Shown here: piece by piece, positions 38,034 through 64,000 of the stretch
How the letters are laid out: each line of letters begins with the position of its first letter
How positions within the stretch are numbered: the first letter of the stretch is position 1
DNA from: a virus
Lineage: Duplodnaviria; Caudoviricetes
Length of the DNA stretch: 64,000 bases
IMG/VR virus record: IMGVR_UViG_3300013426_000016
Coordinates: 128,001-192,000 of that record
Direction: 5' to 3' (one strand)
The notes under the pieces: generated by a model
Told to the model about the DNA's origin: nothing
Databases searched by the model: none
What the model saw: only the letters and a program-made list of their open reading frames with translations
Program-made: the position numbers and the translations under genes

Positions 38034-38988
38034 AAGTTTCCACTCACGTTTTAAATTTATTTAAGTCTTTTGGATATTGAGAAAGACTCTTAAAAGAAGA
38101 ATATTTCTCCCCTCACCACATTCTAACAATATCATCTTGCTCTCTTGTAGGTCTCTCTAAGAAAGATTCCCATACGGATTTAGAAATTATAGGCGGAGTA
38201 TAATTAAAGTCTTGTTGTATAAAGCCTATATGCTGAGGAGTAAGTGTCTCTGGATCTATTCCAGAATACAATTCCTCCATAATAAGAGAAGCTGGTCTAG
38301 AAGTAATCTTCCCTACAGCATTAATGGCTTTACCAAATACTTGAGGTAAACCTGTTCCACGCCCAGCTTTAATTACTTTATATGTATCTGTTAACTTCTT
38401 AACATAATTAGGATCTTCGGCATAACCACCAGCTTTTACTCGATCATAAAATTGATTCGGATCTCCAGTAAAGGCATTGTATCGTTTTCCATTTAAAAGG
38501 TCGATTTTAGCATTAACCCATTCATCTAAAGAGTTATAATTTCTAAATTTCTGAGAAATAGTATTTCCAAGACCATCTTTATCATTTCCCATTGTATAAG
38601 ACTGATCTCCTATAGCAGTAATATTACCATAATTATAATTTCCACTATACTTACTTCCATAAGCAGATTCTAAAGCATCCTGTGCAACAAGCATATAAGC
38701 ATAAGAAGGATCGAGTCCTTTAGCATTTAAAGCAGAAGAGTAAGCAGCATATAAGTCAGAAACAAATTCATCTCTATCTGTGTAGCGCTTGGACTGCTTC
38801 GGAGCAGTAGGTCTCTGTATAGTAGCTAAACCAGAAGTTGTTGTATAAGCCTTACTTGTTATTGGAGTTGTAATCTTTGGAAGAGTATACTCTTTGGAGG
38901 CGGATAAGGAAGTGTAATCTGGTAAAATATCCTCTTCATATTTATGTACACTTTGAGGAATATCTATAGTTTTTAAGTATTTTATCAT
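38017..38988 (-). CDS. Glucosaminidase (GH73/FlgJ-like) domain protein, 323 aa
   Basis: AQDALESAYG, NYGNI, FRNY and GYAEDPNY motifs; extended by 2 TGA. Confidence 0.8.
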
Positions 38989-42736: not shown

Positions 42737-42837
42737 AGAAATCCCAGGGAAAAATTTCTCTGGGATTTTTTTAAAAATATTTGGAAATGTCAAATATTTT
42801 TTTATCGCGCGCGCGTGCGTATATAATAATAGGTATA

Positions 42838-42891
42838 TCGAGTCAGTGCTGAGCACTCTGAAGAGTCTTTGAAAATTAAGACGAAACTCGG
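42838..42891 (+). ncRNA. Hammerhead ribozyme (type III)
   Basis: Stem III CGAG/CTCG; GUC cleavage triplet (cut after 42844); stem I AGTGC-TGA-GCACT; CTGAAGA core; stem II GTCTT/AAGAC; GAAA. Confidence 0.9.
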
Positions 42892-42921
42892 CAAGAAGTT
42901 TAATATTTAATTTAAGTAAAA

Positions 42922-47416: not shown

Positions 47417-47568
47417 CCTTAATCTTTGGTGGATTAGCATATGCAGTTAAACCAGAAGATAACGATAAACATTTTGTTCTTAAACTTGTTCTTTGTATTC
47501 TTCTTACTTTAGTTGCATTTGGATGTTTTTTAGCAGGTAGAGGTGAAGTAATTCAATATTACGATTAA
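47404..47568 (+). CDS. Small two-TM membrane protein (54 aa)
   Basis: MLLLALIFGGLAYAV...LVLCILLTLVAFGCFLAG. Confidence 0.5.
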   Translation: MLLLALIFGGLAYAVKPEDNDKHFVLKLVLCILLTLVAFGCFLAGRGEVIQYYD

Positions 47569-47845
47569 ATTTGTCTAGTTCAAATATTTTTCTCATATTT
47601 GTATTAAAATCCATCTTTAACTGCAAGAGTTAATTATGGTCGCATTATTGAACTTTATTAGTTTTCATAAATAATTGTGTAATATAGAAACTATTCAGTA
47701 GAAGACGCTGATTATCTTAAAACACTACATTTATGTTTAATCTTGCTAAACATAATGTATAATAGTCTGTGTTGAAGTATATAATGCTTTCGAGATTATT
47801 ATTTTTTAAAGTTTCTTTGGAGTAATTATTTTTTATTTTTTTTTC

Positions 47846-48146
47846 GGCCCGTTGTTGGAACTGGTAGAGGTCTGCCCATTACAATGTTAATGAATTGCTT
47901 CAAATTCGGTATCAGTTAGATAAGACATTTTTGTACGAATAAGCTGACTAAGAAAGCCTGATATACCAGAAATGGTAAGTAGTGGTAATACCGAGCTAAG
48001 CCTTTTTAAGGAAAGTGTAGAGACTAGACGGAGCACTAGAAGATATAGTCCGAAGATAAATAAAAATTTATCAAAATTCAAGACAAAACGGTCTTAAAAA
48101 CCGTTTCCAAGCATTTGGAGTGCGTGTTCAAATCACGTACGGGCCA
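47846..48146 (+). tRNA. tRNA-Leu (TAA), split by a group I intron in the D-loop (exons 47846-47865, 48081-48146)
   Basis: Spliced: GGCCCGT TG TTGGAACTGGT|AGACAA A ACGGT CTTAAAA ACCGT, long variable arm, T loop TTCAAAT, ACGGGCC A. Confidence 0.85.
47866..48080 (+). mobile_element. Group I intron in tRNA-Leu D-loop
   Basis: P1 GGTAG/CTGCC (U.G at U20); P3 TGCTTC/GGAGCA; P4 TTCGGT/ACCGAG; P7 GACTA/TAGTC; P9 GATAAAT/ATTTATC; P10 GTCT/AGAC. Confidence 0.85.
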
Positions 48147-48232
48147 CTAAATAATTTTTTATAAAAATGAAAACTAATTATTCCAAAGAAAATTTAGAAA
48201 AAAATCAGGTAATGTAAACAAACGATAATTTT

Positions 48233-48925: not shown

Positions 48926-48997
48926 TGAAATATGGTGTAATGGTTAGCACTTCAGATTTTGGTTCTGGCAGTTTAGGTCCGAATCCTAATATTTCAA
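48926..48997 (+). tRNA. tRNA-Gln (TTG)
   Basis: Acceptor TGAAATA/TATTTCA; anticodon arm TCAGA-TTTTGGT-TCTGG; T loop TCCGAAT (atypical C55). Confidence 0.85.
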
Positions 48998-49018
48998 CTA
49001 AATTTAATTTTCATCATT

Positions 49019-49375
49019 ATGATTAAAGAAATGGTTTACTCTCATCTTCGAGAAAAAGAAATTTTAATGGAAGATGTGTATAAAGACATCCCTTTTGTTA
49101 TTATCAGTTACGGTCTTTGGCCATGTTGTTATTTCCAAATCTCTACAGAAGAACCTAAAGCTGATATAGACATCGATGATTTTCATGGCTTAGATGTTCA
49201 TGGAGGGGTTACACTTGCTGGGAATCTTCCTGGTTATAAAGGAACTTGGATAGGTTGGGATTATGCACATTGTGGAGATTTCGATGTTTTTACAAAAGAT
49301 GGAGATGAATGGTTTATAAAAGACCTTATAAACGAAACTCTTACTGGAATTGATGACTATTTAAAAACTTTTTAA
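49019..49375 (+). CDS. Conserved phage hypothetical protein
   Basis: VHGGVT..WIGWDYAHCGD motif common in phage early genes. Confidence 0.7.
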   Translation: MIKEMVYSHLREKEILMEDVYKDIPFVIISYGLWPCCYFQISTEEPKADIDIDDFHGLDVHGGVTLAGNLPGYKGTWIGWDYAHCGDFDVFTKDGDEWFIKDLINETLTGIDDYLKTF

Positions 49376-49376
49376 T

Positions 49377-49613
49377 ATGAAAGGCGATTTGCTTTATGAC
49401 AAGTACTCTATTATTTCTGAGAAAACTCTTAGAAAACCAGAGTCACAGTACAAGTCTTGGATTTCTAAGCATAAAGAAGGTAAATTGGTAAAGACTGCAA
49501 GAGGATATTTCCTTAATGGCTACCAAATTGATCTTCGTAGTGCTTATGAGTGGTTTCTTTATAATCAGTTTGATAAAGAAGCTACTGCTCTTTCTACTCC
49601 TTTTATAGGATAA
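49377..49613 (+). CDS. Hypothetical protein
   Basis: 78 aa ORF. Confidence 0.55.
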   Translation: MKGDLLYDKYSIISEKTLRKPESQYKSWISKHKEGKLVKTARGYFLNGYQIDLRSAYEWFLYNQFDKEATALSTPFIG

Positions 49614-49622
49614 TTCTTTTAT

Positions 49623-49693
49623 GCTCGGATCGTCTAATGATTAGGACAACTTCCTCTCCGGTTGTTATATAGGTTTGACTCCTATTCCGAGTA
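49623..49693 (+). pseudogene. Degenerate tRNA-Glu(CTC)-like element
   Basis: Acceptor GCTCGGA/TCCGAGT, D and T stems intact; anticodon stem mismatched, D loop lacks GG, T loop TTTGACT. Confidence 0.6.
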
Positions 49694-49701
49694 CTACTTT
49701 T

Positions 49702-49999
49702 GGGTTACTTCAGCATTTATATTTAAAGTACCACTTTATTTTTTTTTACTCATGTAACCTGTTTTTTAAGATTACTTTTTAAAGATTACTTCAGCATTAA
49801 ATTTTTAATTTAGAGCATTGATTTTTGCAAAATTATTTTTATAGTAATCTGATTTTTTAAGGTTGATTATACAGCATTTCATTAAAGAATTTGTGATTCA
49901 TAATTTCAGCCTGGTTTTTTTTTGGAAATAGTTCAGCATTCCTTTTTGCAAATGATTAGTTTTTTAGACCATTGTATAGGGGAGAGACACACTATTTCG
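49702..49999 (+). repeat. Array of four stem-WCAGCA structured RNA units
   Basis: GGGTTAC/GTAACCT, AGATTAC/GTAATCT, AGGTTGA/TCAGCCT and GAAATAG/CTATTTC stems. Each 5' arm is followed by (T/A)CAGCATT and each 3' arm by G. Confidence 0.7.
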
Positions 50000-50033
50000 A
50001 CATAAAGTCTCTCTCCTATACTTTTTATTTTTT
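49974..50033 (+). terminator. Terminator/attenuator-like hairpin just before the DUF2828 gene
   Basis: 15-bp stem GTATAGGGGAGAGAC/GTCTCTCTCCTATAC plus a T-rich tail ending at the ATG. Confidence 0.55.
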
Positions 50034-51386
50034 ATGAACAAATTAGTCGAATCTCTTGACATGGGGTATACTAAAAACGGTGCCCTTACATATAAGACAT
50101 CTCTTAACAAATGTCTCGATCTCTTCTTTGTTATAGGCTGCCATAATGATTATTCTGAGCTATTTTGGGAAGCATATAAAGAAGATGCACAACTTGCATT
50201 ACGTATTCTTTTTTGGAGTAGAGATTGTAGAGGAGGAGCTGGAGCAAGAAGAACTTTCCAAGAAGTTATTAAAGTTCTTTCCGGTAGCCCAGAATTTTCA
50301 AAAGTCCTAAAATATATTCCAGAATTTGGATATTGGAAGGATCTTTTTAAACTTTCTCCAACTAAAGAGATAGCCGATTTTATTATCGCTACTTTAAAGA
50401 ATGAAAATGATCATTCTTTGTGTGCTAAATACTGTCCACGTAAAGGACTGTGGTTTGGTTATTTGCGAAATCTAATGCACATGTCTGCTAGGGATTTTCG
50501 CCATTACATAGTATATAAAACACAAGTTGTGGAACAGCTTATGTGTGCTAATAAATGGTCAGAAATAGAGTATTCTTCAGTTCCGTCTCTCGCTGGGCTT
50601 AGATACTCTAAATTATTCCTTAAGCATGATCCAGAACGTTATAAAACATATATAGATAAAGTAAATGAAGGAAAGGAGAAAATAAATGCTTCTGTTCTTT
50701 ATCCACATGAAATTTTTGCTTCTTACATGACAGATAAAAAAAGAGATGTAACAAGAGCTTTGTGGAATGCTTTACCTAATTATATGCAAGATTGTAATGA
50801 AAACATTTTGCCTATATGTGATGTTTCTGGTTCTATGATAGGTCTTCCTATGAATATTTCTGTATCTTTGGGTTGTTATATCTCAGAAAGAAATACTGGA
50901 GACTTTAAAGATTGTATTATCACTTTTTCCCAATGTCCGGAGTTTGTTAAACTTACTGGAAGTATAGATGAACGCTTTGCTCAATTAAGAACAAGCTCAT
51001 GGGGATTTAATACTAATCTGCGACGAGTATTTGATCTTATTTTGAAACGAGCTGTTATGAATGAAGTTCCAAAAGAAGATATGCCTACTAAGTTGTTGAT
51101 TATCAGTGACATGGAACTAGACGATGCGTCACCAGAGTATACAAACTTTGAAGCTATTAAACAAAAATATGCAGCTTCTGGATATGAGATGCCTACTATT
51201 ATTTTCTGGAATGTTAATGGAAGATTAAATAATATTCCTGTACAAAAAGATGAAAAGAATGTAGCACTTGTTTCCGGATATTCACCAAGTATCTTAACGC
51301 ATCTTTTGAAAGGAGAGGTTCTTACTCCTATGCAAATAATGCTAGATACAGTAAACTCTGAACGTTATCAGTGTATTAGGTTGTAA
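50034..51386 (+). CDS. DUF2828-family protein with C-terminal vWA domain (Ro60/TROVE-like)
   Basis: TKNGA..S..CLDLFF, RDCRGGAG.R, EFGYWKDL, YSSVPS, DVSGSM (MIDAS), ISDME, IIFWNV, LVSGYSP. Confidence 0.85.
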   Translation: MNKLVESLDMGYTKNGALTYKTSLNKCLDLFFVIGCHNDYSELFWEAYKEDAQLALRILFWSRDCRGGAGARRTFQEVIKVLSGSPEFSKVLKYIPEFGYWKDLFKLSPTKEIADFIIATLKNENDHSLCAKYCPRKGLWFGYLRNLMHMSARDFRHYIVYKTQVVEQLMCANKWSEIEYSSVPSLAGLRYSKLFLKHDPERYKTYIDKVNEGKEKINASVLYPHEIFASYMTDKKRDVTRALWNALPNYMQDCNENILPICDVSGSMIGLPMNISVSLGCYISERNTGDFKDCIITFSQCPEFVKLTGSIDERFAQLRTSSWGFNTNLRRVFDLILKRAVMNEVPKEDMPTKLLIISDMELDDASPEYTNFEAIKQKYAASGYEMPTIIFWNVNGRLNNIPVQKDEKNVALVSGYSPSILTHLLKGEVLTPMQIMLDTVNSERYQCIRL

Positions 51387-51431
51387 TATTATTTGGGGAG
51401 AATGGAGAAATCTATTCTCCCTTTATTTTTT

Positions 51432-52067
51432 ATGGCAGCTATAGACAAAACTTATATAAAGACTTTTGAAGATTATAAAAGTGTCATTGAATGGTGTAAA
51501 CAAATAGGAGAAGTTACAGATGACTATGGAAATGTATTTTCTCCTTATGAGTATATTTATTGGCCAGAAGTAACAAAAGAACTTTGGAATAAAGAAGTAG
51601 AACAAGCTCTCACATATAAAGAAGCATATGAAGCTATACTTTGGAATACTCCTGTTTTTATGGATGTTTGGCTTATAAGATATTGTCCTTTAGATATTAT
51701 ACAAAATCGTCTAAAAGAACAATATGGAGACTCTTATAAAGCAATTAAGAATAGAGTTTCTGAATATGACACTATTGATACTTCTCAGTCTACTAAAGTA
51801 AAACTTATTTCTAAAAAAGGTAAGTTGGAAAGAAATAAATACCATTGTTATTATGTAAGTATTAAAAACTTCATTTATAATGAAAAAACAGATAAATGGC
51901 AAAGTTTTTATGATTTACGCATAGTAAAAACGTGGGGATGTTGTTATTTTCCAGCTACTTGCTCTCTGAAAAGTATTTATAAAAAAATACTTAGATGGAA
52001 ACTACCTATAGGAACAATCGTAGAGGTTTCTTCTAATAATTTGACTTTAATTTATAAAACAAAATAA
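51432..52067 (+). CDS. Hypothetical protein
   Basis: ATG 51432 (MAAIDK); the ORF-track extension is a terminator hairpin at ~51395-51431. Confidence 0.65.
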   Translation: MAAIDKTYIKTFEDYKSVIEWCKQIGEVTDDYGNVFSPYEYIYWPEVTKELWNKEVEQALTYKEAYEAILWNTPVFMDVWLIRYCPLDIIQNRLKEQYGDSYKAIKNRVSEYDTIDTSQSTKVKLISKKGKLERNKYHCYYVSIKNFIYNEKTDKWQSFYDLRIVKTWGCCYFPATCSLKSIYKKILRWKLPIGTIVEVSSNNLTLIYKTK

Positions 52068-52068
52068 A

Positions 52069-52308
52069 ATGATTTTCTTTTATATCATAGGCCTTATATT
52101 TTTTCTTTATATATGTAATAACATTACATTTAAAGATAAGTTTTGGTTTGCTTTATTTGCTTTGAACTTTTTTGTTCCGGTAATAAACACTCTGTTACCA
52201 ATTGTATTTATAATCATTTTAGGTTATTTTGATTTGGAAACAGATGCTGCCGTACTTAAAGATACTAAATTAAATCGTTGGTTATTTAAATCTAAATTTA
52301 ATGCTTAA
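52069..52308 (+). CDS. Small membrane protein
   Basis: Hydrophobic 79 aa ORF. Confidence 0.55.
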   Translation: MIFFYIIGLIFFLYICNNITFKDKFWFALFALNFFVPVINTLLPIVFIIILGYFDLETDAAVLKDTKLNRWLFKSKFNA

Positions 52309-52507
52309 AATGAATTTGTTTAGAATAGGATTAAAAGTTATAATCCTACTTATTTACGCCTTGTGTATTATGCTTCTTTGGAATGCACTTCTCCCTATGC
52401 TTATAGGGCTTCCTACTATTAATTTCATAGAGGCTTTGGGGATAAGGGTACTTATACACTTTCTTATTTACAACATAAATAACATATTTTCGTATAATGA
52501 CATATAA
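52301..52507 (+). CDS. Small membrane protein
   Basis: MLLWNALLP..GLPTINFIEALG motif. Confidence 0.6.
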   Translation: MLKMNLFRIGLKVIILLIYALCIMLLWNALLPMLIGLPTINFIEALGIRVLIHFLIYNINNIFSYNDI

Positions 52508-52790
52508 AACAAAACTAGGGGATTTACACTATGATATTCTGATAAAAGACATAGGTAAATCCTCTTTTTATATGCACTATGATTCTACTGATAATCTTCG
52601 TTTAGTTAATAGTGAAAGAGCTTTAGAAAAAGTTAAATCTGAATTAAGTAAAGTATATGGAAACATCACTGTTTTAGTAAATTCAGAAAAAGGAAAAGAA
52701 GTTACTATACTTGATACTAAATGGAAAGAAGATTACAAGAAATATATACAAGATAAATTAAACTGGTGTAATACTTACACTGCTGAATAA
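52497..52790 (+). CDS. Hypothetical protein
   Basis: 97 aa ORF in operon. Confidence 0.55.
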   Translation: MTYKTKLGDLHYDILIKDIGKSSFYMHYDSTDNLRLVNSERALEKVKSELSKVYGNITVLVNSEKGKEVTILDTKWKEDYKKYIQDKLNWCNTYTAE

Positions 52791-52792
52791 TT

Positions 52793-53359
52793 ATGAATAT
52801 AAAGAAAGAAGAAATCTTAAACTTGTACAGAATAGCTACTAAATTTGGGGAAATAAATACAACAAATGCCTTAGAAAAACTTTTAGGTAAAGAAACTTTT
52901 ATTCCTATTAAAAAAACAAAAAGTATGATTGATAGAATTAAGACTTTTGAAGATGCAGAAGAACTTCTTGGAAATCAACACCCTTTAGTTGAAGCTTGTG
53001 ATAGTTGTGAATTTCCCGGAGATGATTGTTTAAATGCTTATTTAAAATTAAGAGTTATTTGTGCTGCTTTGAATGAAAATTCTACTCTAGATCCAGAGTA
53101 TCTTATGTATTATCCAAAGTTTGAGCTTTTATATGAAGATGAGTGTGAGTATTATAAGAAAGAAGGAAAAATTTTTATAAACATCGAAAGATATAATACT
53201 TCTTATTATGGAATGCGTTTCTTAAAAAGTGATTTTCCATTTGAAAATACTCCACAAAGATATGGAAATCAACTTTGCCTTAATACTGAAGAGCTTGCAA
53301 GTTATTGTGGAGAACAGTTTATAGATCTTTGGGCAGATTTTTTATTCACTAAAAAATAA
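52793..53359 (+). CDS. Bacteroidota-phage hypothetical protein
   Basis: RIKTFEDA..AYLKLRVI..ALN..QFIDLW pattern. Confidence 0.65.
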   Translation: MNIKKEEILNLYRIATKFGEINTTNALEKLLGKETFIPIKKTKSMIDRIKTFEDAEELLGNQHPLVEACDSCEFPGDDCLNAYLKLRVICAALNENSTLDPEYLMYYPKFELLYEDECEYYKKEGKIFINIERYNTSYYGMRFLKSDFPFENTPQRYGNQLCLNTEELASYCGEQFIDLWADFLFTKK

Positions 53360-53368
53360 AAATATATT

Positions 53369-53854
53369 ATGAATGAGAATTTAAATTTAGTAAAAATCCT
53401 TGAAGGTTGTCCAGCAGATACAAGTCTTTGGTCTCCTTTATTTGGTCCTGTAAAATTTGTAGACTTCAGCCCAAATAGGATACGAGTAGCTACGACAAAT
53501 GATATAGTAGAAGTGTTTTCTCCTAATGGAAAGTACTTTGATCTTAAAAGCGCAGAATGTACTCTATTTCCATCTAAAGAGAATAGAGACTGGAGTACAT
53601 GGAAGTGTCCAAAGAAAAAGAAGAAATGTTTTGATCCAAATACACTGAAACCATTTGATAAAGTACTGGTAAGGGATTTTGCAAATGAAAAATGGGGACC
53701 TTCTTTCTTTGGTTATATGGATTATGAAGAAGGTGACTTTCCATGTAAGCATGTAGGATCAATATCAAATTGTTGTATTCCTTATAATGAGGAAACCAAA
53801 CACCTTATCGGAACTACGGACGAAGCTCCAGAATATTACAGATGGTGGAAATAA
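53369..53854 (+). CDS. Bacteroidota-phage hypothetical protein
   Basis: LFPSKENRDWS and LKPFDKVLVRD..CIPYNEET motifs. Confidence 0.7.
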   Translation: MNENLNLVKILEGCPADTSLWSPLFGPVKFVDFSPNRIRVATTNDIVEVFSPNGKYFDLKSAECTLFPSKENRDWSTWKCPKKKKKCFDPNTLKPFDKVLVRDFANEKWGPSFFGYMDYEEGDFPCKHVGSISNCCIPYNEETKHLIGTTDEAPEYYRWWK

Positions 53855-53869
53855 ATAATATAAGTAATT

Positions 53870-54199
53870 ATGTGGATAGCAAGAGATAAAAGTGGTTATT
53901 TATGTATCTATAATGAAAAACCTCGTAAAGATGAGGTAGAACATATATTTGAAAACAAAGATGAACTTTTACACATAGATAATGATGAATTTCCAGAAAT
54001 AACTTGGGAAAACTCTCCTGTAGAAATTACAACTACTTCTTTTGAAGATATTTGGGAACAACGCAGATATGAAATTGCAAAGGACACAATGTGTGCATTG
54101 ATTATAAGTGACAGCATTCCAAAAACGACTCCAGTTTTAAAAGTAGAGGAATTAGCGGTTGCTTATGCAGATGGGCTTATTAAAGAATTGAAGAAATAA
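53870..54199 (+). CDS. Bacteroidota-phage hypothetical protein
   Basis: WIARDK and WEQRRYEIAK modules. Confidence 0.65.
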   Translation: MWIARDKSGYLCIYNEKPRKDEVEHIFENKDELLHIDNDEFPEITWENSPVEITTTSFEDIWEQRRYEIAKDTMCALIISDSIPKTTPVLKVEELAVAYADGLIKELKK

Positions 54200-54202
54200 G
54201 TT

Positions 54203-54601
54203 ATGAAAGCAAATGAGTTAATGTTGAACGATTGGGTGGAATTTGAGGCCTCAACAACGGAATTTCTTTACGGTAAGGTTATAGAAATTTCTGAACGTTA
54301 TGTTACAGTAGATACAATAAACGACAGTATCTGCATAGAAATAGACAAGGTGGGTCAAATACCTGTTACTCCAAAGATTCTTAAAAAGAACGGATTTGAA
54401 AGGTACTTTGAAGGATATTATGAGAACCCCAAAGAGCTGCATATTTCATATAATGACAATCTGGGATGTTGGTATATTAGTGACAGCCACGACCAGTATA
54501 TGCATAGTGATTACATAACTTCATTTTCCGCAGTTCATGAATTGCAGAATATTTTAAGAACTCTTGGATTTAATGATTTAGCAGACAATTTTAAGATATA
54601 G
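54203..54601 (+). CDS. Hypothetical protein
   Basis: ELM..DWV..IPVTPKILKKNGF..VHELQN pattern. Confidence 0.65.
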   Translation: MKANELMLNDWVEFEASTTEFLYGKVIEISERYVTVDTINDSICIEIDKVGQIPVTPKILKKNGFERYFEGYYENPKELHISYNDNLGCWYISDSHDQYMHSDYITSFSAVHELQNILRTLGFNDLADNFKI

Positions 54602-54623
54602 AAACAATCGAAGAAATAGCATT

Positions 54624-54923
54624 ATGAACTTTGAAATACCACAATTCTTCTCAGTCGGAGGGCTTTACTACAAAATCCTTCACGAAGAATCTATGAGATA
54701 CGGTGAAGAATATGGACATTGGAACGGCACGACATGCACCATACATATAGCCAAAACCGCAGGTGGAGAAAAGCTGTCGGAGGAAAGAAAACAACAGACA
54801 TTCTTTCACGAACTCGTTCACGCGGCTCTCGACGCTATCGGCGAGGATGAACTAAATGACAACGAGCGATTTGTGGATGCCCTTTCGGGCACTCTCTATC
54901 AAGCAATAAAAACAATGAAATAG
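54624..54923 (+). CDS. Small HExxH metallopeptidase-like protein
   Basis: QTFFHELVHA..NERFVD. Confidence 0.7.
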   Translation: MNFEIPQFFSVGGLYYKILHEESMRYGEEYGHWNGTTCTIHIAKTAGGEKLSEERKQQTFFHELVHAALDAIGEDELNDNERFVDALSGTLYQAIKTMK

Positions 54924-54925
54924 CC

Positions 54926-55165
54926 ATGAACATAAAAGAAAGTGCGGATGGATACATAGGCCTCCCGAAAGAACGCGGCGAACTGCTTGAAGTCACCATG
55001 CGCAGGAACGCGTTCTTCGACGGAGCGGACTGGATGAGGCAAAAGGCCATGGTCAGCTTCGAGGACGCTATCCGCAAACTCAAATCACGCCTGCCAACAG
55101 AAGCCCGGCAACGCTTTTCCGTGACGGAAGAAATGATGAAATTCAATAAATCACTATCAGAATGA
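54926..55165 (+). CDS. Hypothetical protein (TGA stop)
   Basis: ATGA overlap with the next gene. Confidence 0.6.
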   Translation: MNIKESADGYIGLPKERGELLEVTMRRNAFFDGADWMRQKAMVSFEDAIRKLKSRLPTEARQRFSVTEEMMKFNKSLSE

Positions 55166-56410: not shown

Positions 56411-57009
56411 ATGACCTTCGGACTGCCCTACAAAGGAAGCAAAAACAAACTCGCCGCACGCATAGCGGAACTCCTGCCCCCTGCCCACACCCTCGTGGAC
56501 ATCTTCTGCGGCGGTTGCGCCGTGGCTCACGCAGCCGCACTCTCCCGCAAACCGCCCTGCACAACATCAAAGGATTAACGGAAAGACGACTAGCACTGAA
56601 ACGCTTGCCGTTGCCTATCCCTGACAGACACCGCTGTTTGCAAGGCTTGGAGAGACTGAATAGACTGAATAGACTGAATAGACTGCCCCACGATATGTTC
56701 TCTCCCACGAATCTTGACTACCGCTCCGTCCCCATCCCCGAAAACTCCATAATCTACGCCGACCCTCCCTATCAAAACACCAACCACTATGGACATACGC
56801 GCTTCGATTCCGACAGCTTCTGGAACTGGGCACGCAACTCTATACACCCTATCCTCATCTCCGAATACCACGCCCCAAATGACTTCGTCACCGTGGCCGA
56901 ATTGAAACGCGTATCCCCCCTCTCCGCTACCAACAATAAAGCCGCAGCACCCGAACATCTCTACACCACGCCCCGATTCGCCCACCTCTTCCATGATACC
57001 CTCTTCTGA
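56411..57009 (+). pseudogene. Frameshifted/internally deleted DNA adenine methyltransferase (Dam/D12-like)
   Basis: PYKGSK and DIFCGG in one frame; YADPPY and LISEY in another; AGACTGAAT tandem repeat between them. Confidence 0.7.
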
Positions 57010-57623
57010 CGAATTACTACCCCGAATTTCGGTGGTTGGAATTGTCGCGAATTTTGGAGGCTTGGAATACCGCGAATTTTGAAGGGGATACCCGGGGCGC
57101 CTGCCTAAAACGCAGGGGGGGGGTATCCCAAACCGCCCAAAAGCGACAAAATGTAAGTACCCCAAAGTGTTTTCCCCGTATTTTCGGACACCCACGGGGG
57201 CAAAAAGCGACAAAATGTATAATTTCGAGGGTACGGCAGGCGGCGAAAGGCGGCAAATCAAGGCCGCAGGGGCGAAAAAGGTCGGCACACTGGAAGAGTT
57301 AGGCCGGTAGAGGGGTGCAAAATGAGGGCAAAAAGGGGCAATTTCGCAGCGCAATTTGTACACAGCAAGTCTGCCCCCCGTGAAAAATTTGACCACTTCC
57401 GAAATTTATTTGTACACCGCCGCGGAATTTCGCGACATTCGGCGCTGTCGCCCATATCCTTTCCTGCCCAAGAAGAAAACCGCAGAAGTGGCCCTATTTC
57501 GCACGCGAAAGCCCCTCAAGGTATCGGAGTACCTAAAGGGGCTATAAGGCTGCAAAACAAGGGTTTAAATACGAGAAAACGAGACTTAGCGCGTGAGGGG
57601 TTAAACGCTTTCAGACAAAAGCG

Positions 57624-57697
57624 CGGCCCTATTGCCTTATTTCGCCCTATTGCCTTATTTCGCCTTTCACCTTATTTCGCCCTTTTGCCTTATTTCA
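57624..57697. repeat. Tandem ~18-bp repeats (GCCCTATTGCCTTATTTC) x4
   Basis: Directly visible in a non-coding region. Confidence 0.6.
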
Positions 57698-57949
57698 TCT
57701 CTTTATCGCTCACTCAATCAAACAAACGTCTGTCTTGCGGTTATATAAGAGAGAAAGGGCGCAACCTGTAAGAGTTGTGCCTTTCCTTTCTTTTTTCTCC
57801 TTGTGGCTTAACCTACTATAAATGACGCTATTAGATTGCCATTTCGGTTATAAATGTTAGTTTGATTCTTTGTTTCTTCCATTCGCGTGGCCGCTATGCA
57901 ATTGATATAGAATATGTTAGCCGCGTCCTTGCGTTGCGTTGCTGTGCAC

Positions 57950-58183
57950 TTAAATATCTTCGTTTTCATCGTCTAAATCATTATATATCATGTCGTTAAT
58001 GGTTTCATCGAACCATAGTAATTCATTAATTTCCCCTTCTGTCGCCTGCCCGTTTGTCACCTCTTCGATATACTTCCAAACTTTTTCCGCAACTCCGGAG
58101 TAAATAGCATCGTCTTTCCTCGCCTTGCCGCCTTGCCAAGCGTCAAAATCTTCAAGCGCGGTAATTTCTGTAATTACGTTCAT
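57950..58183 (-). CDS. Hypothetical protein
   Basis: FDAWQGG..INELLWFD motif. Confidence 0.6.
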   Translation of the reverse strand: MNVITEITALEDFDAWQGGKARKDDAIYSGVAEKVWKYIEEVTNGQATEGEINELLWFDETINDMIYNDLDDENEDI

Positions 58184-58201
58184 ATCTTAATGTCTTGAAA
58201 T

Positions 58202-58480
58202 TTAACCGATTACATATATTTTCCCTCTCCGGCTATTGGCTATATACTCCATGTCGCAAATTTCGTACACGGGGAGATAATTTGCGCGCCGACCATATCC
58301 ATCATCGTAGAACCCCTCGAAGGTAAATTGATTAGGTTCTGCGCTCTTGATTATTTCGATTTCGCGAAAACCAAGGTAAATGTCTTTTCGCGGTGTGCCG
58401 TCGTGGCGCAGGAGCGAAATTTGACGCTCTGTAATTTCGCCTTTCGCGGCGATTTCCTTCAAAATCATTTCAGTTTTCAT
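58202..58480 (-). CDS. Hypothetical protein
   Basis: 92 aa ORF. Confidence 0.55.
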   Translation of the reverse strand: MKTEMILKEIAAKGEITERQISLLRHDGTPRKDIYLGFREIEIIKSAEPNQFTFEGFYDDGYGRRANYLPVYEICDMEYIANSRRGKIYVIG

Positions 58481-58506
58481 TGCTTTGTAAATTTAAATTA
58501 AAAAGT

Positions 58507-58728
58507 TTACTTATTTTCCAGAGACATAAATTTATCAAAAGAGATTGAGATTGTGCAGCGATTGCCCCACTTTGTAACACTTTTTATATCTCCGTGTACG
58601 ACTGCGTTATAAATTTCAAGAGACGGGCAACATTCGCACACTATAATTCTATCACCATAAAATTCGACTTTTTTTACCTCAATTTCAAGGTAATCAATAG
58701 CTCCGCTCTTGATTGTAAGTACTTGCAT
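58507..58728 (-). CDS. Hypothetical protein
   Basis: Likely start MQVLTIK after an AT-rich leader. Confidence 0.5.
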   Translation of the reverse strand: MQVLTIKSGAIDYLEIEVKKVEFYGDRIIVCECCPSLEIYNAVVHGDIKSVTKWGNRCTISISFDKFMSLENK

Positions 58729-58941
58729 GATTTTAATATTTAAATTATTTAATAGCTCGTATACAATGGTTTGACCCATTGCGGCCGTAAATTCTCACAA
58801 CGCACCCGCCTATTTTCGCGAACCTTTTGACAAGAATTTCCGCTTCGGCAATAGCCTCTTCCAAGCTTTGGAAGTCATCTAAATCGAACCTTTTTAAGAA
58901 CTTTGCATCTTTCATTTTACTAAAATATTTAAAATTAAATC

Positions 58942-59163
58942 TTATTTGTAAATTATTTCATAAATCACGGGGTCGGCAGAAAGAAGATAATTTATATCCA
59001 TCTCATCAGAGTCGCCGCACTCTATATATATATCGCACAACATTTGCCACACGGCGGCCGCCCGATGTCTGCGATATGCTGCTTTCCTATTATCCGCTGC
59101 AACGCCGAAAAGTTCGAAGTCACGAAGACAGCTGTAAAATTGGCCGTTAATTATCATTTTCAT
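58942..59163 (-). CDS. Hypothetical protein
   Basis: 73 aa; TACCTTTG promoter element upstream. Confidence 0.5.
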   Translation of the reverse strand: MKMIINGQFYSCLRDFELFGVAADNRKAAYRRHRAAAVWQMLCDIYIECGDSDEMDINYLLSADPVIYEIIYK

Positions 59164-59739
59164 TTCTCATCAAAAATTAAAACTTGTTTGTCTCGTTCGG
59201 ACAATGCAAAGGTACAACGATTTTTGATAACTACAAATTTTTTTTGCACTTTTTTCGAGTTTTTTTCATCCTTTTCCTTTTGTCCTTGATTTTCAAACAA
59301 TTACGATAGCGTTTGTATTTTTCCCTTTGCGTATATATAAGTTCACGCGCGCGTTATTTACAACTTTCAGCAGTCGCAATCTTAATTGCTATTGCGCGAT
59401 CTTAATTTATAGCGCACCTTTGCACTATCAAATTTATAGCATTATGATAGCTAAATTTCTACACGCAGCGACTAAATTTTTCGCGACGCACGTCCTTCGG
59501 CTACTTGCAACCGCCGCCCTCGTGGCCCTTGCCCTCCACTGGAAAGAGGGCGGAGTATTTCCCCTCGCCCTTGCTGTGCTCTTGTGGACTGCGTGAATTT
59601 TTAGAGCACTTGCAGGACGCGCCCGGCAAAGGGCCGTGAATTTTTAGACCTTGCCCGGAACGGGGCATGAATTTTCAGACGCCAAGCGGCTGACGTGAAT
59701 TTTTAGGCCGTGTGAATTTTTATAAACAAAACGATTAAA

Positions 59740-60051
59740 ATGAAAACAAGCAAAATTTTTCGGGAAAAAAGTCTTGAGGAACTCCACGCAAGCCACTTCT
59801 ATAAGTTGCGGAAAACCTCACAAAACACAATGATTGAGTACGTGGTCAGATACGACTACAACGGGCGTTTCGCAGTGCGCTGCGCAGGCGTCAACGCAAA
59901 CGGGGTTCCTTTCGTGGGTTCGGCGCAGAACGACGGGCGTTACTTCTTCCAGGTAGACACCTGCGACACTTTCGAGCAAGCGCAGGAGCACCCCGAAGAG
60001 TTGTACTCCGACATGATGCTTGCAATAGGGGCAAGGCGGAGGAACAAATAA
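59740..60051 (+). CDS. Hypothetical protein
   Basis: 103 aa ORF. Confidence 0.55.
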   Translation: MKTSKIFREKSLEELHASHFYKLRKTSQNTMIEYVVRYDYNGRFAVRCAGVNANGVPFVGSAQNDGRYFFQVDTCDTFEQAQEHPEELYSDMMLAIGARRRNK

Positions 60052-60098
60052 TTTTTAGGACGTGAATTTTTAGTAAACACAACAAAAATAACAACGCA

Positions 60099-60776
60099 AT
60101 GAAAAAGTTTAATATCAGCGCGTTCTGCGCAAAGAAGTCGGACCCCGTGCCGTCCAAATTTTGGGGAATAAGCTACAAGGACGGCAAAATGATAGCATCG
60201 AACACGCTTGTGCTTGCATCCGTCAAAGCGGATTATCCGGCGGAATACGAGGGCGGCATATATGCCGGAGACGTACGGATTTTCGATGAAACCATCCCTG
60301 CCGAAATGGTATTGGAGCAAGGACGCGCCAAAACGCTTGCAGTATCGTTACCTATTGCGGAACTTAAGGCCGCCTGCAAAGTCTGCCGTGATAGCGGCAA
60401 AGCAATGGGCGCGGTGGAATTTGTCGCCATCCCTTTCGGGGACAATCAAAAATTGCTTTTCAAACGCACTCTTCTGTCAAAGATTCTCACCGCCTGCGAA
60501 TGTTTCGGCATCAAGGAAATGCATATATCAGAATCGAGGCCGTATTCTTCCGCATATCTGACAGACGGCAACGGCAACGAGTTCGCTATCATGCCGGCCT
60601 ATCCGGCATTCGCCTATGTTGACCTTTCCGGACGAATCCACGATTATCCTTTTCTCATTGACGATTTGATAAGGCAGGCGGAGATTGCGCTCAAAGACGC
60701 GGGGAAGCCGCAGGAGCAAGCGAAAGCGGCGTCACATCTGATTAGTCTCAAATTCATAAAATCCCGTCTTGCTTAG
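60099..60776 (+). CDS. Hypothetical protein (weak sliding-clamp-like pattern)
   Basis: G.MIASN..VLA near the N-terminus and FAIMP near the C-terminus. Confidence 0.55.
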   Translation: MKKFNISAFCAKKSDPVPSKFWGISYKDGKMIASNTLVLASVKADYPAEYEGGIYAGDVRIFDETIPAEMVLEQGRAKTLAVSLPIAELKAACKVCRDSGKAMGAVEFVAIPFGDNQKLLFKRTLLSKILTACECFGIKEMHISESRPYSSAYLTDGNGNEFAIMPAYPAFAYVDLSGRIHDYPFLIDDLIRQAEIALKDAGKPQEQAKAASHLISLKFIKSRLA

Positions 60777-60778
60777 AC

Positions 60779-60817
60779 GAAAGAAAGGGGTTTCCGAACT
60801 GGAAGCCCCTTTCTTTG
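60779..60817. terminator. Bidirectional terminator
   Basis: AAAGAAAGGGG..CCCCTTTCTTT between convergent genes. Confidence 0.65.
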
Positions 60818-60916
60818 AAATAAGGCCTATTTTAGGCGCGCCAACGGGATAGGATGATAAGTTATACCAAAAGGTTCTTTACCGCGCCAAAAACGGCATC
60901 AAAACAGCAAATACGG

Positions 60917-61255
60917 CTATTTACGGATTATGTTTCGCTTGTATGTTTCACAGATATGCCCGTATTTCCATTCGGGATTGAGTTCGCAGCCCAAGCATTT
61001 GCCGTCTGCCGAATATTCGGACATCTGCCCGAAAAGGCAGGTGTCGCAGGTGTCGGGGATTTTCGAATCTTCCCTCTCCTTGATTTTCCGGCCTATCCAG
61101 ACGGACAAGTTCAAGCCTGCAACGAATGTCGTCACCAAAGCCGCGGGGAACCACAGCCAAGAGAGGGCCACGGCCCACGAGACGAGGCCGAGAATTTTCA
61201 GAACCAAAGCGGCCGTCACCCAAAGGACGTATGCCGCATAACCGATTTTCCTCAT
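60917..61255 (-). CDS. Membrane protein with Cys-rich tail
   Basis: LVLKILGLVSW..WLW.P TM motif; CDTC. Confidence 0.6.
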   Translation of the reverse strand: MRKIGYAAYVLWVTAALVLKILGLVSWAVALSWLWFPAALVTTFVAGLNLSVWIGRKIKEREDSKIPDTCDTCLFGQMSEYSADGKCLGCELNPEWKYGHICETYKRNIIRK

Positions 61256-61563
61256 AGTGAATTTTTGAAATGTTTTTCGTACTCCTCATATTTCTCACCG
61301 AATGCGCCATCCACCAGGAGCAGGTCTCCGGCGCGGTAATAGGAGTATACTATCGTTGTGTAGTGCATCCCGAAAAGCTCCGCAATCTCCACGTAGGTCA
61401 TGCAGGTGTTCTCCCGGAGAATCCGCACGGACATCATCCGCACGTCAGCGTACTTTCGCTTGTGAGACCTGTTCTGGTAGTTGGCCAAGGGCGCGCCGAA
61501 CACCTCCATGCAGGCGGAGTCCAACGCCCCCACGATAATTTTTAGTTCCTTTTCGCTGACCAT
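61252..61563 (-). CDS. DnaA C-terminal-like HTH protein
   Basis: RSHKRKYADVRMM..IAELFGMHYTTIVY. Confidence 0.7.
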   Translation of the reverse strand: MVSEKELKIIVGALDSACMEVFGAPLANYQNRSHKRKYADVRMMSVRILRENTCMTYVEIAELFGMHYTTIVYSYYRAGDLLLVDGAFGEKYEEYEKHFKNSL

Positions 61564-61579
61564 AATTTTTAGACTTTTT

Positions 61580-61843
61580 TCAGAACGGCAGGTCATCTTT
61601 CTCCGCGTCCTGCGGCGCGGAATTGCCGCCCCCGAACTCCTTAGTCTTGAGGTTGCCGAGGTAGATTGTCTCCCGATTCTCCTTATCGTAGATGGAGACG
61701 GAGTGCGTGTTGCCGTACTCGTCTTCGCCGTTCTTGTTCGGGACGATGTCGATGAAGATGCACTTGTCCCCTTTCTTCGTTTCCCCAATCAACCGCTTCG
61801 GTATCTTGGTGAGGTTGATTAACCCTGTCAGTTTTGTTGCCAT
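61580..61843 (-). CDS. Small SSB-like protein
   Basis: INLTKI..DEYGNTH..YLGN with acidic DDLPF tail. Confidence 0.65.
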   Translation of the reverse strand: MATKLTGLINLTKIPKRLIGETKKGDKCIFIDIVPNKNGEDEYGNTHSVSIYDKENRETIYLGNLKTKEFGGGNSAPQDAEKDDLPF

Positions 61844-61846
61844 AAA

Positions 61847-62302
61847 TTATTGTTTGACATATCGTTTCTCTATCCACCGCTTCGCCATCGGAAAGTCCAA
61901 CTGGCGCGTGCGCATCACGAAAGACACCGCGTTCTCTCTCGCACCGCATCGGAAGCAGCCGAAAATCTGATATTTCGGACTTGTATACGCAACATTCTTC
62001 TTGCCGCAGAACGGGCAGTCGCAGATGTAGTTCTCGCCACGGAATTCCGCCGGAAGCGTGTCGCAGACGATTTCTTCTATCCGTGCATGCCTGCACAGCT
62101 CCCTCGCCGCGCCGATTTCGCCGTCCTCACGGAATTCATATCCGCGCGCCTCCGCTATGCTGCGGCAGTAGCCGTAATCCGTCCCGGCAGGGATTGCCCC
62201 GTCCACGGGATAATACACGTTGTCCATTATCCACTTGTGCAGCTGCTCATCGTTCGTCACCGAATTGATGTAGTTGCCATATCTGTATATTCTTATCTTC
62301 AT
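61847..62302 (-). CDS. CHC2 zinc-finger (primase-type) protein
   Basis: CPFC..FGCFRCG..NAVSFVM..DF..A. Confidence 0.7.
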   Translation of the reverse strand: MKIRIYRYGNYINSVTNDEQLHKWIMDNVYYPVDGAIPAGTDYGYCRSIAEARGYEFREDGEIGAARELCRHARIEEIVCDTLPAEFRGENYICDCPFCGKKNVAYTSPKYQIFGCFRCGARENAVSFVMRTRQLDFPMAKRWIEKRYVKQ

Positions 62303-62553
62303 TTGATTCTCTCCGCAAATTCCCTGCTTTCTATCTCCAACGGCTGAAGATAATCAGCCGCCGTGTCGAGTACGTAGTCTTTAGCATCTTCATATCCGTT
62401 CTTGATTGCGCACACGGTTATCGCCGACAGGTGCTTCCGCCCATCCTCGTCCGTGTTGACCGCCAAGAAGCCCTCGCCGCGTCTGCGCACCACGAGCATG
62501 TAGTCGCACCTGCGCATCATCCACGTGACCAGCTTTATCAGCAAATCAAACAT
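62299..62553 (-). CDS. Hypothetical protein
   Basis: 84 aa ORF in operon. Confidence 0.55.
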   Translation of the reverse strand: MFDLLIKLVTWMMRRCDYMLVVRRRGEGFLAVNTDEDGRKHLSAITVCAIKNGYEDAKDYVLDTAADYLQPLEIESREFAERIK

Positions 62554-62932
62554 GCCTTTCCTCCTTTGTCACGCCGTCCCCGTTCCCCTCTATCGTCCCG
62601 TTCGCTTTCCGCTTCGCGAGCTTCTCAAGATTGAACTTCGCCACCTCCTCAAGTGAGTAGCCCATGGATGCCGCCATGCCTGCTACGCCCCACAGGATGT
62701 CCCCGAGTTCAAGTATCACCCCGAGGTCGAAGTCCATCTCCTCGCGCGTCTCCATCACTGAAGAATTGATGAGGTTGTCGCTGAACTTCAGCCTCCCTTT
62801 CCTTATCGCCTTAGCGAACTTCCCTTGCAGTTCCCCGGCCTCCGATGCTATCTCAAGCATCATGTAAAGATGATTGTCGCAACTGTCCATCCTCGTGGAC
62901 ATCGCCTGCGTTTGATAATCATTCAACTCCAT
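62546..62932 (-). CDS. MazG-like nucleotide pyrophosphohydrolase
   Basis: EAGE..ELGDILW..NLEKL..R..G.I.G.GD. Confidence 0.85.
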   Translation of the reverse strand: MELNDYQTQAMSTRMDSCDNHLYMMLEIASEAGELQGKFAKAIRKGRLKFSDNLINSSVMETREEMDFDLGVILELGDILWGVAGMAASMGYSLEEVAKFNLEKLAKRKANGTIEGNGDGVTKEERHV

Positions 62933-63332
62933 TGTATTCCTTTTTCAGTTGTTCTATTCTCCTGTTGTTCTTTTCAAGTATCCGCATCCCCGTCCTTGTC
63001 GTGGAATGCTCCCAACGCTCGTGGCAGTGTTCGCAGAGGATGTTCACGTTCCTCGGGTCATGGGCCATCCTCGCATCCGCGCCACGGCTGATGATGTGGC
63101 TCACGTTGTAGGCACTCGGAGTCCGTATCGGCCTGCGGCATTCCTCGCAGATGAGCGGCAGGCGCGAAAGGCAGAAGCGGTAGAACTTGTGGTTTCCCAC
63201 CGCATCGTTCTTCCCGAACCGCTCTTTCTGCACCTCCACACGGAGCGCGTGCGACATCGGAAGCCGCTCATCAATCAAAGGCTCATAACCGCGTTCCACG
63301 GCATAGCCGTATTCCTCCCGTGTCTCTATCAT
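62919..63332 (-). CDS. HNH-family (NinG-like) nuclease
   Basis: CEEC..SHIISRG..HDPRNVNILCEHCH. Confidence 0.7.
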   Translation of the reverse strand: MIETREEYGYAVERGYEPLIDERLPMSHALRVEVQKERFGKNDAVGNHKFYRFCLSRLPLICEECRRPIRTPSAYNVSHIISRGADARMAHDPRNVNILCEHCHERWEHSTTRTGMRILEKNNRRIEQLKKEYNGVE

Positions 63333-63685
63333 TTGATGCCGTTGAAATAATCCCTCTCCCAACGCTCGCGTTCCGCCTTGGGGACTTTCGCCTCCTCGGG
63401 GAAACCCTCGAACCAATGGTCGATATTGATTCTCCGGGCTTTTTTCTTCCCCAAAGCAATACCGTACAGCATTTGCATGTCATAATCGTACCATTTGAGA
63501 AACGAATCAAAATCTATCCCGTTGTCTACGACATAACGCAATTCCCAGTTCGACAGGAAGAGGTCTACGACATCGAATGTGCAATAGCCATCGTCCATCC
63601 ACTCTCCGTCAGTCTCCCACATCTCGTTCAGTTTCTCCACGTATGCCTTGCACGCGGCAGAGTACATCAACTGTAAACTTGTCAT
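63329..63685 (-). CDS. Hypothetical protein
   Basis: ATG 63685 with ATGA overlaps on both sides. Confidence 0.6.
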   Translation of the reverse strand: MTSLQLMYSAACKAYVEKLNEMWETDGEWMDDGYCTFDVVDLFLSNWELRYVVDNGIDFDSFLKWYDYDMQMLYGIALGKKKARRINIDHWFEGFPEEAKVPKAERERWERDYFNGIK

Positions 63686-64000
63686 ATCTTCGGATAATCC
63701 AATATCTGATAAAAATTCTCCGCAGCGTACTGGACGGCCCATTCTATCACCTCGTTTGCCTCCGCGCTGTCGAGTTCCTCGAAGTCCTTGTAACCCACTC
63801 TCCACTTCCCGTCAATCCTTTCCTCACGTGCGAAGAGTGGGCACTGCCGCTTCATCCATTCGTAGGTCTGCTCTTTCGTGTATCTCTCCCCGTACTCCTG
63901 CATCAACATCCCCTGCATCTCCGGCACGACATACCCGAAGAAGTAGTTGGTGACCTTGTCGCTCGGCTCAGCGGCGAGTATCTCCGCACGCAGGATTATG
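63682..64000 (-). CDS. NinB-like protein (5' truncated by window)
   Basis: NYFFGYVVPE..TYEWMK..ELDSAE..IE..QYAAE. Confidence 0.55.
   Translation of the reverse strand, partial: IILRAEILAAEPSDKVTNYFFGYVVPEMQGMLMQEYGERYTKEQTYEWMKRQCPLFAREERIDGKWRVGYKDFEELDSAEANEVIEWAVQYAAENFYQILDYPKI

Follow-up and report, generated by a model that had tools for sequence, protein, structure and literature searches.

A group I intron without P8 that interrupts the D-loop of a phage tRNA-Leu(UAA) gene and apparently ends in A instead of G

Can a tRNA gene that is interrupted in its D-loop still give rise to a tRNA, and, if the interruption is a group I intron, where does that intron end? These questions are raised by a locus in the 64,000-nt stretch of DNA analysed here (the window), which corresponds to positions 128001-192000 of IMG/VR record IMGVR_UViG_3300013426_000016, from a phage of the Caudoviricetes. 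The unspliced segment 47846-48146 is not called as a tRNA by ARAGORN, no gene is found there by ARAGORN or by an Rfam search at the gathering score, and an Rfam scan gives a partial match to the tRNA model at 48068-48139. With the two exons of Table 1 joined, ARAGORN calls a canonical 87-nt tRNA-Leu(UAA). This tRNA has the cloverleaf, the long variable arm and the anticodon UAA of a class II bacterial-type tRNA-Leu, together with a 7-bp acceptor stem, a UUCAAAU T-loop, a GG in the D-loop and a D-arm that reads UUG-GAACUGGUAGA-CAA. Exon 2 ends at the discriminator base, A48146, and CCA is not encoded. The interruption lies between tRNA nucleotides 20 and 21, that is, in the D-loop and outside the anticodon loop. 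The codon TTA accounts for 44.7% of Leu codons (38 per 1000 codons), and the initial annotation was right to call it very frequent; its further proposal, that splicing would gate the supply of the tRNA for this codon, is speculative.

As the initial annotation had predicted from the letters alone, the interruption is a group I intron. Besides the joined tRNA, the evidence is a full-length Rfam alignment and a homologue in a second phage, which is described below. The Rfam Intron_gpI model aligns end to end over 47842-48072 (model positions 1-253; permissive scan), with 21.5 bits and an E value of 0.0028 in a 501-nt search. The gathering score of RF00028, which is 50, is not reached, mainly because of the missing P8 (59 model positions are deleted) and a 77-nt insertion in P5. 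In 121 phage IC3 introns of the Azoarcus type, the core strings GUGUAGAGACUAGACGG and AAGAUAUAGUCC are the same. The helices listed in Table 1 were placed from the minimum free energy fold, the reading of the sequence and the Rfam alignment, and the alignment and core strings place a pseudoknotted P3-P7 core together with P4, P6 and the joining strands J3/4, J6/7 and J8/7.

The internal guide, GUCU-GCC (47870-47876), forms P1 with the end of exon 1, and the U.G wobble puts the 5' splice site after U20, as had been proposed. The GUCU part of the guide (47870-73) pairs with AGAC (48081-84) at the start of exon 2 as P10, contiguous with P1; this pairing was also foreseen. In P7, A48021 is bulged and the pair G48022-C48050 is intact, in line with the claim made for it; we take it to be the guanosine-binding pair, by what is established for IC3 introns (Azoarcus G130-C177). 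In the 3' domain, GAA and UUC could pair as P9.0, and no equivalent of this pairing is found in the relatives. The intron had been said to have a complete group I core. That description is correct for P1, P10, P2-P7, J8/7 and P9, all of which are present, and incorrect for P8, which is absent.

Table 1. Features of the split tRNA-Leu(UAA) gene and its intron (window positions)
Feature	Position	Strand	Description and basis
tRNA-Leu(UAA) exon 1	47846..47865	+	acceptor 5' strand GGCCCGU, U8 G9, D-stem 5' strand UUG, D-loop to U20; ARAGORN
Group I intron, IC3-like, P8-less	47866..48080	+	215 nt given the P10-defined 3' splice site; Rfam Intron_gpI, homologue in second phage
P1 hairpin	47863..47876	+	GGUAG-AGGU-CUGCC, strands 47863-67/47872-76, wobble U47865.G47874; sequence reading, MFE fold
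P2	47877..47892	+	CAUUA-CAAUGU-UAAUG; MFE fold
P3 5' strand	47896..47901	+	UGCUUC, partner GGAGCA 48030-48035; Rfam alignment
P4	47906..47994	+	UCGGUA 47906-11/UACCGA 47989-94, encloses extra hairpin and P5; folds
Extra hairpin inside P4	47912-47947	+	folds
P5	within 47906..47994	+	GCC 47956-58/GGU 47984-86, with GAAA-capped stem 47964-77; folds
P6 and P6a	47995..48016	+	GCU/AGU and CCUU-UUU-AAGG; Rfam alignment
P7 5' strand	48020..48026	+	G-A(bulge)-GACUA, pairs with 48046-48051; string identical in 121 phage IC3 introns
P3 3' strand to P7 3' strand	48030..48051	+	GGAGCA, 4-nt P8 remnant C48036-G48039, J8/7 AAGAUA, P7 3' strand UAGUCC; sequence reading
3' domain	48052..48079	+	GAA, P9 hairpin GAUAAAU-AAAA-AUUUAUC (48055-72), AAAA, UUC; fold
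Terminal (omega) position	48080	+	A here, G in L411, L376 and L374; by P10, canonical tRNA and three relatives
Candidate cryptic 3' splice site	48082	+	sole G near intron 3' end; product an 85-nt tRNA with 15-nt D-arm, 5 nt after GG
tRNA-Leu(UAA) exon 2	48081..48146	+	AGA, D-stem 3' strand CAA, anticodon arm (UAA), long variable arm, T arm, acceptor 3' strand; ARAGORN

P8 is normally counted as part of the group I core. In the window only CUAG stands between GGAGCA and AAGAUA, where P8 would be expected, and UAGUC follows GACGG at a spacing of 14 nt, versus 20-41 nt in nearly all of the 116 phage IC3 intron cores that share GTAGAGACTAGACGG. P8 is also absent from two introns in phage protein genes, whose exons join in frame. 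One of them, in L374, is a 183-nt intron that interrupts the Walker A motif of a terminase gene (11780-11962, - strand); its boundaries are GGUGGU|...CACUG|UACGG, and the restored frame reads GTFGG|YGSGKS. A non-canonical junction considered for this intron was dropped, as enumeration of the junctions gave a solution with U(-1), a terminal G and a 3-bp P10. The other, in L376 (identical in L378), interrupts helicase motif VI, with the restored frame QRVG|RILRH. Both have the canonical U(-1) and terminal G. Since these introns lack P8 and their canonical boundaries nevertheless restore the frames, the loss of P8 is not a decay peculiar to the window copy. The intron of Azoarcus, at 205 nt, is usually cited as about the smallest; the terminase intron is smaller.

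The protein-gene relatives (L376/L378, L409/L410/L412 and L374) resemble the window intron in the lack of P8 and in a GCC(C) guide that targets (G)GGU|, a guide that the window, L376 and L374 have in common. The exon junction of the helicase intron in L376, GGGU|AGA, is close to that of the D-loop, UGGU|AGA, and J8/7, which is AAGAUAUAGUC in L376 and AAGGUAUAGUC in L374, is a further likeness. They differ from the window intron in their location in coding genes, in the canonical U(-1) and terminal G, and in that some of them carry endonuclease ORFs. In an SF2 helicase gene, the introns of L376/L378 and of L409/L410/L412 lie at separate sites, and they have endonuclease-like ORFs. The 94,451-bp contig L409 recurs as L412 in a human gut collection, where it was binned into an Acholeplasmatales MAG; this is a possible hint to the host of that phage. 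The window intron thus belongs to a small phage subfamily that is IC3-like, has P8 reduced or absent and uses the internal guide (UCU)GCC, and it splits tRNA-Leu(UAA) between D-loop nucleotides 20 and 21.

A search for homologous split tRNAs in phage genomes, which the initial annotation had put forward as a check, returned one at the same D-loop site. It was found by a pattern made from the extra hairpin and the P5 region, and it lies on a 42,706-bp IMG/VR phage contig (L411; identical in L408). The nhmmer match between the two introns has an E value of 5e-18. The layout in L411 is GGAACUGGU, a 236-nt intron and AGAC, with the intron end reading ...AAUUG|AGAC; when the intron is removed in silico, ARAGORN calls a canonical 86-nt tRNA-Leu(UAA). 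The L411 intron scores 23.3 bits against Intron_gpI, also below the gathering score of 50, in a full-length alignment with P8 deleted. It shares with the window copy the insertion site, the GCC guide, the P10 partner AGAC, the L2 loop and the extra hairpin; this hairpin and the adjoining CUAAGAAAGCCUG are nearly identical in the two and are common also to L376, L409 and L410. Unlike the window copy, the L411 intron ends in G, retains a 4-bp mini-P8 (CACU-UUU-AGUG) and has a P9 three-way junction with a GAAA loop. The tRNA exons differ as well, in the acceptor, anticodon, variable and T stems (the L411 acceptor strand is GCCCCCG and its anticodon stem AAGGA/UCCUU).

The two copies were compared in a helix-by-helix table, the MAFFT alignment being set aside as it mis-registers the 3' half. 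Each of the 68 modelled pairs is standard in the two copies alike; 46 of them are unchanged and 21 are changed on both sides. Only one change is one-sided, a C-G pair in P10 that is a U.G pair in L411 (AGAC/GUCU versus AGAC/GUUU), and it keeps the pairing. Nine of the 21 compensatory pairs fall in the intron: one in P1 (GGUAA/UUGCC in L411, with the wobble kept), two in P2 (UACUA-CAAUGU-UAGUA, with the loop unchanged), four in P3 (CAACUC/GGGUUG), one in P6 and one in P7, its last pair. The other 12 fall in the tRNA stems, that is, in the acceptor stem and D-stem to which exon 1 contributes and in the stems of exon 2. Judged from these sequences, selection acted on the ribozyme fold and on the tRNA alike while the two copies diverged, and the evidence for this is strong. 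The compensatory changes across both copies therefore indicate that the D-loop site is a maintained arrangement and no accident. The only GAAA tetraloop is in L5b in the window (47969-47972) and in the P9 branch, L9b, in L411 (about 12096-12099), so a switch of tetraloop and receptor between the two sides of a P5-P9 contact may have taken place.

Where the intron ends is a more difficult matter. An AGA repeat, which the initial annotation did not mention, stands at both junctions, so that four registers give the same product. In just one of them, U47865|...A48080|, does the 5' splice site fall at the U.G wobble; only the register G47867|...G48082| ends in G, with a G-C pair in place of the wobble. 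In L411, L376 and L374 the terminal G is immediately followed by the exon bases whose partners in the guide adjoin the wobble G (P10 is AGAC/GUUU, AGA/UCU and UAC/GUA, respectively), and by this family rule the terminal base in the window is therefore A48080. P1, P10 and the canonical D-loop agree with the proposal that the 3' splice site follows A48080: the junction U47865|A48081 gives a D-arm of 17 nt with 7 nt after the GG, which is within the range of phage genes. Among 54 unique phage tRNA-Leu genes at the loci that were fetched, the D-arm is 16-17 nt in all and 15 nt in none, and 7 nt separate the GG from the end of the D-arm in 51 of the 52 that were scored. Use of G48082 would, as had been pointed out, remove 2 nt of the D-loop and give an 85-nt tRNA with a D-arm length that none of the 54 genes has.

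The terminal G (omega-G) that is nearly universal in group I introns is thus not found at 48080, the nearest G being 2 nt into the exon. The A is not a sequencing error, because it is present in 15 of 15 independent assemblies of the allele (the window and 14 others from SPAdes, MEGAHIT and Logan, in several studies). The strands of the P7 pocket (GUAGAGACU and AGUCC) are identical in the window and L411, so nothing compensates for A48080. From the sequences, A48080 appears to be derived, a change without compensation in a ribozyme specific for G. Its origin is possibly a G-to-A change of the terminal base, or else a shortening of an earlier ...CAAG|AGAC by one AG. The suggestion of a possible omega-A intron is not supported as it stands, since the sister copy ends in a normal G and has the same pocket strands.

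The locus itself is variable. It lies downstream of the gene for ClpP, and at least four versions of it occur in a single phage species. The allele with the D-loop intron is found in 15 of the 21 assemblies typed. Three assemblies (L247, L428 and L432) carry a second tRNA-Leu(UAA), which starts GCCUCAG and whose anticodon loop is interrupted by a 376-nt intron with a terminal G; this tRNA is intronless in L435, as it also is in a relative with 89% ClpP identity (L423). In a further form (L426 and L434) an HNH endonuclease gene stands beside the locus, and no tRNA of that form was seen. In a more distant relative (L425, 69% ClpP identity) the tRNA-Leu(UAA) has an anticodon-loop intron and an HNH ORF. 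Relatives down to 69% ClpP identity all retain a tRNA-Leu(UAA) at the locus, and this conservation and the frequency of TTA argue for function.

The cassette region with the D-loop intron (47417-48232, 816 nt) has only two singleton SNPs, and its flanks have many shared SNPs. With a diversity near zero, the D-loop allele is therefore of recent origin, and fitness need not be the cause of its high frequency. The comparison (47700-48232 and eight loci) suggests an active turnover of introns and endonucleases in which cassettes are replaced behind a shared upstream block. For the flanking 135-aa protein no relatives were found, and a scan for promoters and terminators gave nothing exceeding shuffled controls. 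Inside the nearby tRNA-Gln gene (48926-48998), linked SNPs at 48968 (G>A) and 48997 (A>G) segregate together in several assemblies.

As far as the mechanism is concerned, we predict that the transcript would fold into P1-P10, that a free guanosine would attack after U47865, the U of the U.G wobble, and that the 5' exon would stay on the GCC guide. The AGAC of the 3' exon would then pair with GUCU as P10, which would set the 3' splice site after 48080. In the intron of Tetrahymena, exon ligation is blocked or greatly slowed when A replaces the terminal G, unless the pocket pair is altered as well. Michel et al. in 1989 and Been and Perrotta in 1991 reportedly found that changing this pair from G-C to A-U makes the intron accept the new base. 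Those engineered introns resemble the window intron in having a base other than G in the terminal or nucleophile role; they differ in that the window pocket is unchanged. We put at about one half the probability that the window allele is a derived mutant of the terminal base, not adapted to A, in which the second step, exon ligation, is impaired. This is the best reading because the sister copy ends in G and the pocket is unchanged, and the impairment itself is one that we infer from the behaviour of other introns. The canonical tRNA would then be made inefficiently at best, and a stalled RNA of intron and 3' exon, or a product 2 nt short formed via G48082, would be likely by-products. Against an impaired intron stands the fact that the allele with A is the commonest at the locus, although working alleles, one intronless and one with an anticodon-loop intron, coexist with it.

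The alternative that splicing is completed at A48080 well enough to supply the tRNA is possible, although we regard it as unlikely. The 4-bp P10, a possible P9.0 in which GAA/UUC abuts A48080, and the tRNA scaffold would offset the weak binding of A in a G pocket; P10 and the tRNA fold might position the site enough for slow ligation. The convergence of P1, P10 and the canonical D-arm on 48080 points this way, as do the majority status of the allele with the A fixed within it, the structure maintained since the split from L411 and the 44.7% share of TTA among Leu codons. The conserved tRNA-Leu(UAA) in relatives would fit with an allele that still supplies the tRNA, and the GAAA loops in L5b and L9b leave room for a P5-P9 tertiary contact that could still be under selection. 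However, the P7 pocket is the same as in L411, which ends in G, the allele is young enough for its frequency to reflect a recent sweep or hitch-hiking, and among 5,292 bacterial tRNA introns none was accepted with a terminal base other than G (10.1101/2020.01.27.920355). The general claim that a natural group I intron ligates with a terminal A in an unaltered G pocket, with its site fixed by P10 and the tRNA fold, we hold to be a little more doubtful still.

Ligation at G48082, by which the ribozyme would bind this G and join U20 to A48083, would give an 85-nt tRNA that lacks two D-loop bases. The G-specific pocket is intact; the introns of relatives end in ...AAG or ...AAAG, like UUCAAG here, and if GAA/UUC pairs, a 2-nt tail precedes G48082 just as one precedes G12116 in L411. 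Slippage may have removed one AG unit from an ancestor with ...CAAG|AGAC, and ARAGORN still calls the 85-nt product a tRNA-Leu. But P10 would be down to 2 bp with a 2-nt gap beside P1, and the D-arm would be outside the range of all 54 phage tRNA-Leu genes and unlike that of both other alleles at the locus, which make this outcome improbable. Much less probable is a shift of both splice sites, with the 5' site after G47867 (GGUAG|A) and G48082 as the last base. The AGA repeat would give the same canonical 87-nt tRNA, with P1 of 5 bp and P10 of 2 bp contiguous, yet cleavage would take place at a G-C pair, two pairs away from a U.G wobble that is conserved in L411, L376 and L374, and it is the wobble pair, rather than the end of the helix, that sets the cleavage site. 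The shift is also impossible in L411, whose intron starts with AA. That the insertion is no intron at all, and that chance or some other element destroyed the tRNA gene, is hardly credible: an Rfam score under the gathering threshold and a missing P8 might suggest it, but the alignment is full length, nine pairs in the intron helices are compensatory relative to L411, and the protein-gene relatives restore their ORFs at canonical boundaries. The impaired mutant of the terminal base is therefore the reading that we prefer.

How does this intron compare with those already known? The survey of Williams covered 5,292 bacterial tRNA group I introns in 21 classes, all in the anticodon loop, with U(-1) and terminal G in 98.5% of the raw calls; by design, the method tested eight anticodon-loop positions only, and other locations are not reported (bioRxiv 10.1101/2020.01.27.920355). 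T-loop group I introns are noted there only in tmRNA; like the window intron, they sit in a tRNA-like fold outside the anticodon loop, but in another host RNA and at another site (10.1101/2020.01.27.920355). The position beside the anticodon is also the one given for bacterial tRNA group I introns in a 2014 review. In the searched literature no D-loop tRNA group I intron, no P8-less intron and no natural terminal base other than G was found. The insertion site, which the initial annotation had thought to be new, is thus new as far as that literature goes, and the second phage, L411, indicates that it is real and evolutionarily maintained.

The closest known systems are the IC3 introns of bacterial, plastid and phage anticodon loops, such as those of Azoarcus tRNA-Ile and cyanobacterial tRNA-Leu(UAA). 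They share with the window intron the core strings J3/4 AAAU, GUAGAGACUAGACGG and AAGNUAUAGUCC, a short P1 with three exon base pairs and a U.G wobble, and tRNA-Leu(UAA) as a type of host gene. The window intron differs from them in its D-loop site (20/21), the absence of P8, the lack of a GNRA loop in L2 or L9, the extra hairpin after P4 and the last base, A instead of G. Archaeal non-canonical introns also interrupt tRNAs outside 37/38, the D-arm included, but they are short, have a bulge-helix-bulge and depend for their removal on a protein endonuclease and a ligase instead of a ribozyme (PMC4090602, PMC4033280).

Of the 121 phage introns with the same IC3 core, 80 are in anticodon loops according to ARAGORN, and 65 of these are in tRNA-Leu(UAA). 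Exhaustive joining followed by ARAGORN gave D-arm junctions among the 41 unclassified ones, which proved to be artefacts of complete downstream tRNA genes. Phage entries in GenBank gave short core matches only, or nothing. A pattern for the anticodon stem had 36 matches in IMG/VR, of which 35 were uninterrupted tRNA-Leu(UAA) genes and one was not a tRNA. The first P8-less pattern had zero matches, and a metagenome scan with TGGTAGAGGTCTGCC had at least 120 chance matches, with a group I core in none of the matches listed. In GTDB genomes, P8-less or D-loop-specific patterns gave no matches, or chance matches in coding sequence only.

Several other observations concern the rest of the record, which is 203,856 bp long. 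The GC content is 0.50-0.54 at 0-25 kb, about 0.31 in the middle of the record, and climbs from 0.46 to 0.51 over 185-204 kb, a region that takes in about 57000-64000 of the window. For the same phage, independent contigs in ENA measure 153-156 kb, and the record may be chimeric or have foreign flanks. Some metagenome samples contain the phage at high coverage, for example ERZ808283 (NODE_8, 137x) and ERZ26858444. The genome has at least nine further group I intron matches, several of them clustered at 124-129 kb; they include window positions 561-774 (-) and 20708-20929 (-) and genome positions 124683-127767 and 48942-55124. The match at 20708-20929 reaches 76 bits in the genome search, yet it was missed by the window-wide gathering scan. 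One of the matches (about 126200-126700 of the genome, - strand) carries a LAGLIDADG-like ORF. A type III hammerhead ribozyme is matched at 42837-42892 (+) of the window with 52.1 bits, which exceeds the gathering score. In-frame TGA occurs 3.4 times per 1000 codons in long ORFs, ARAGORN finds a tRNA with the anticodon UCA at genome positions 38494-38568, and the HNH gene of L426 and L434 needs TGA as a sense codon (about 440-450 in L426). These findings fit with TGA recoding in part of the genome.

In conclusion, the subfamily described here shows that P8 can be missing from introns whose helicase and terminase exons still join in frame, one of them only 183 nt long. All catalogued group I introns of tRNA genes interrupt the anticodon loop, which is also the sole place that standard finders examine. 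Split tRNAs of the present type therefore go undetected, as the gene in the window does in ARAGORN and in the Rfam search at the gathering score. Two phages with an intron in the D-loop, which differ by 21 compensatory changes, indicate that the ribozyme can use another part of a tRNA as its exon scaffold. An intron that ligates with a terminal A would, if real, be the first natural and working departure from the terminal-G rule, besides being the first group I intron in a tRNA D-loop. The four forms of the locus, together with the sister intron that ends in G, provide a system for measuring how important the terminal G is when P10 and the tRNA fold hold the splice site.
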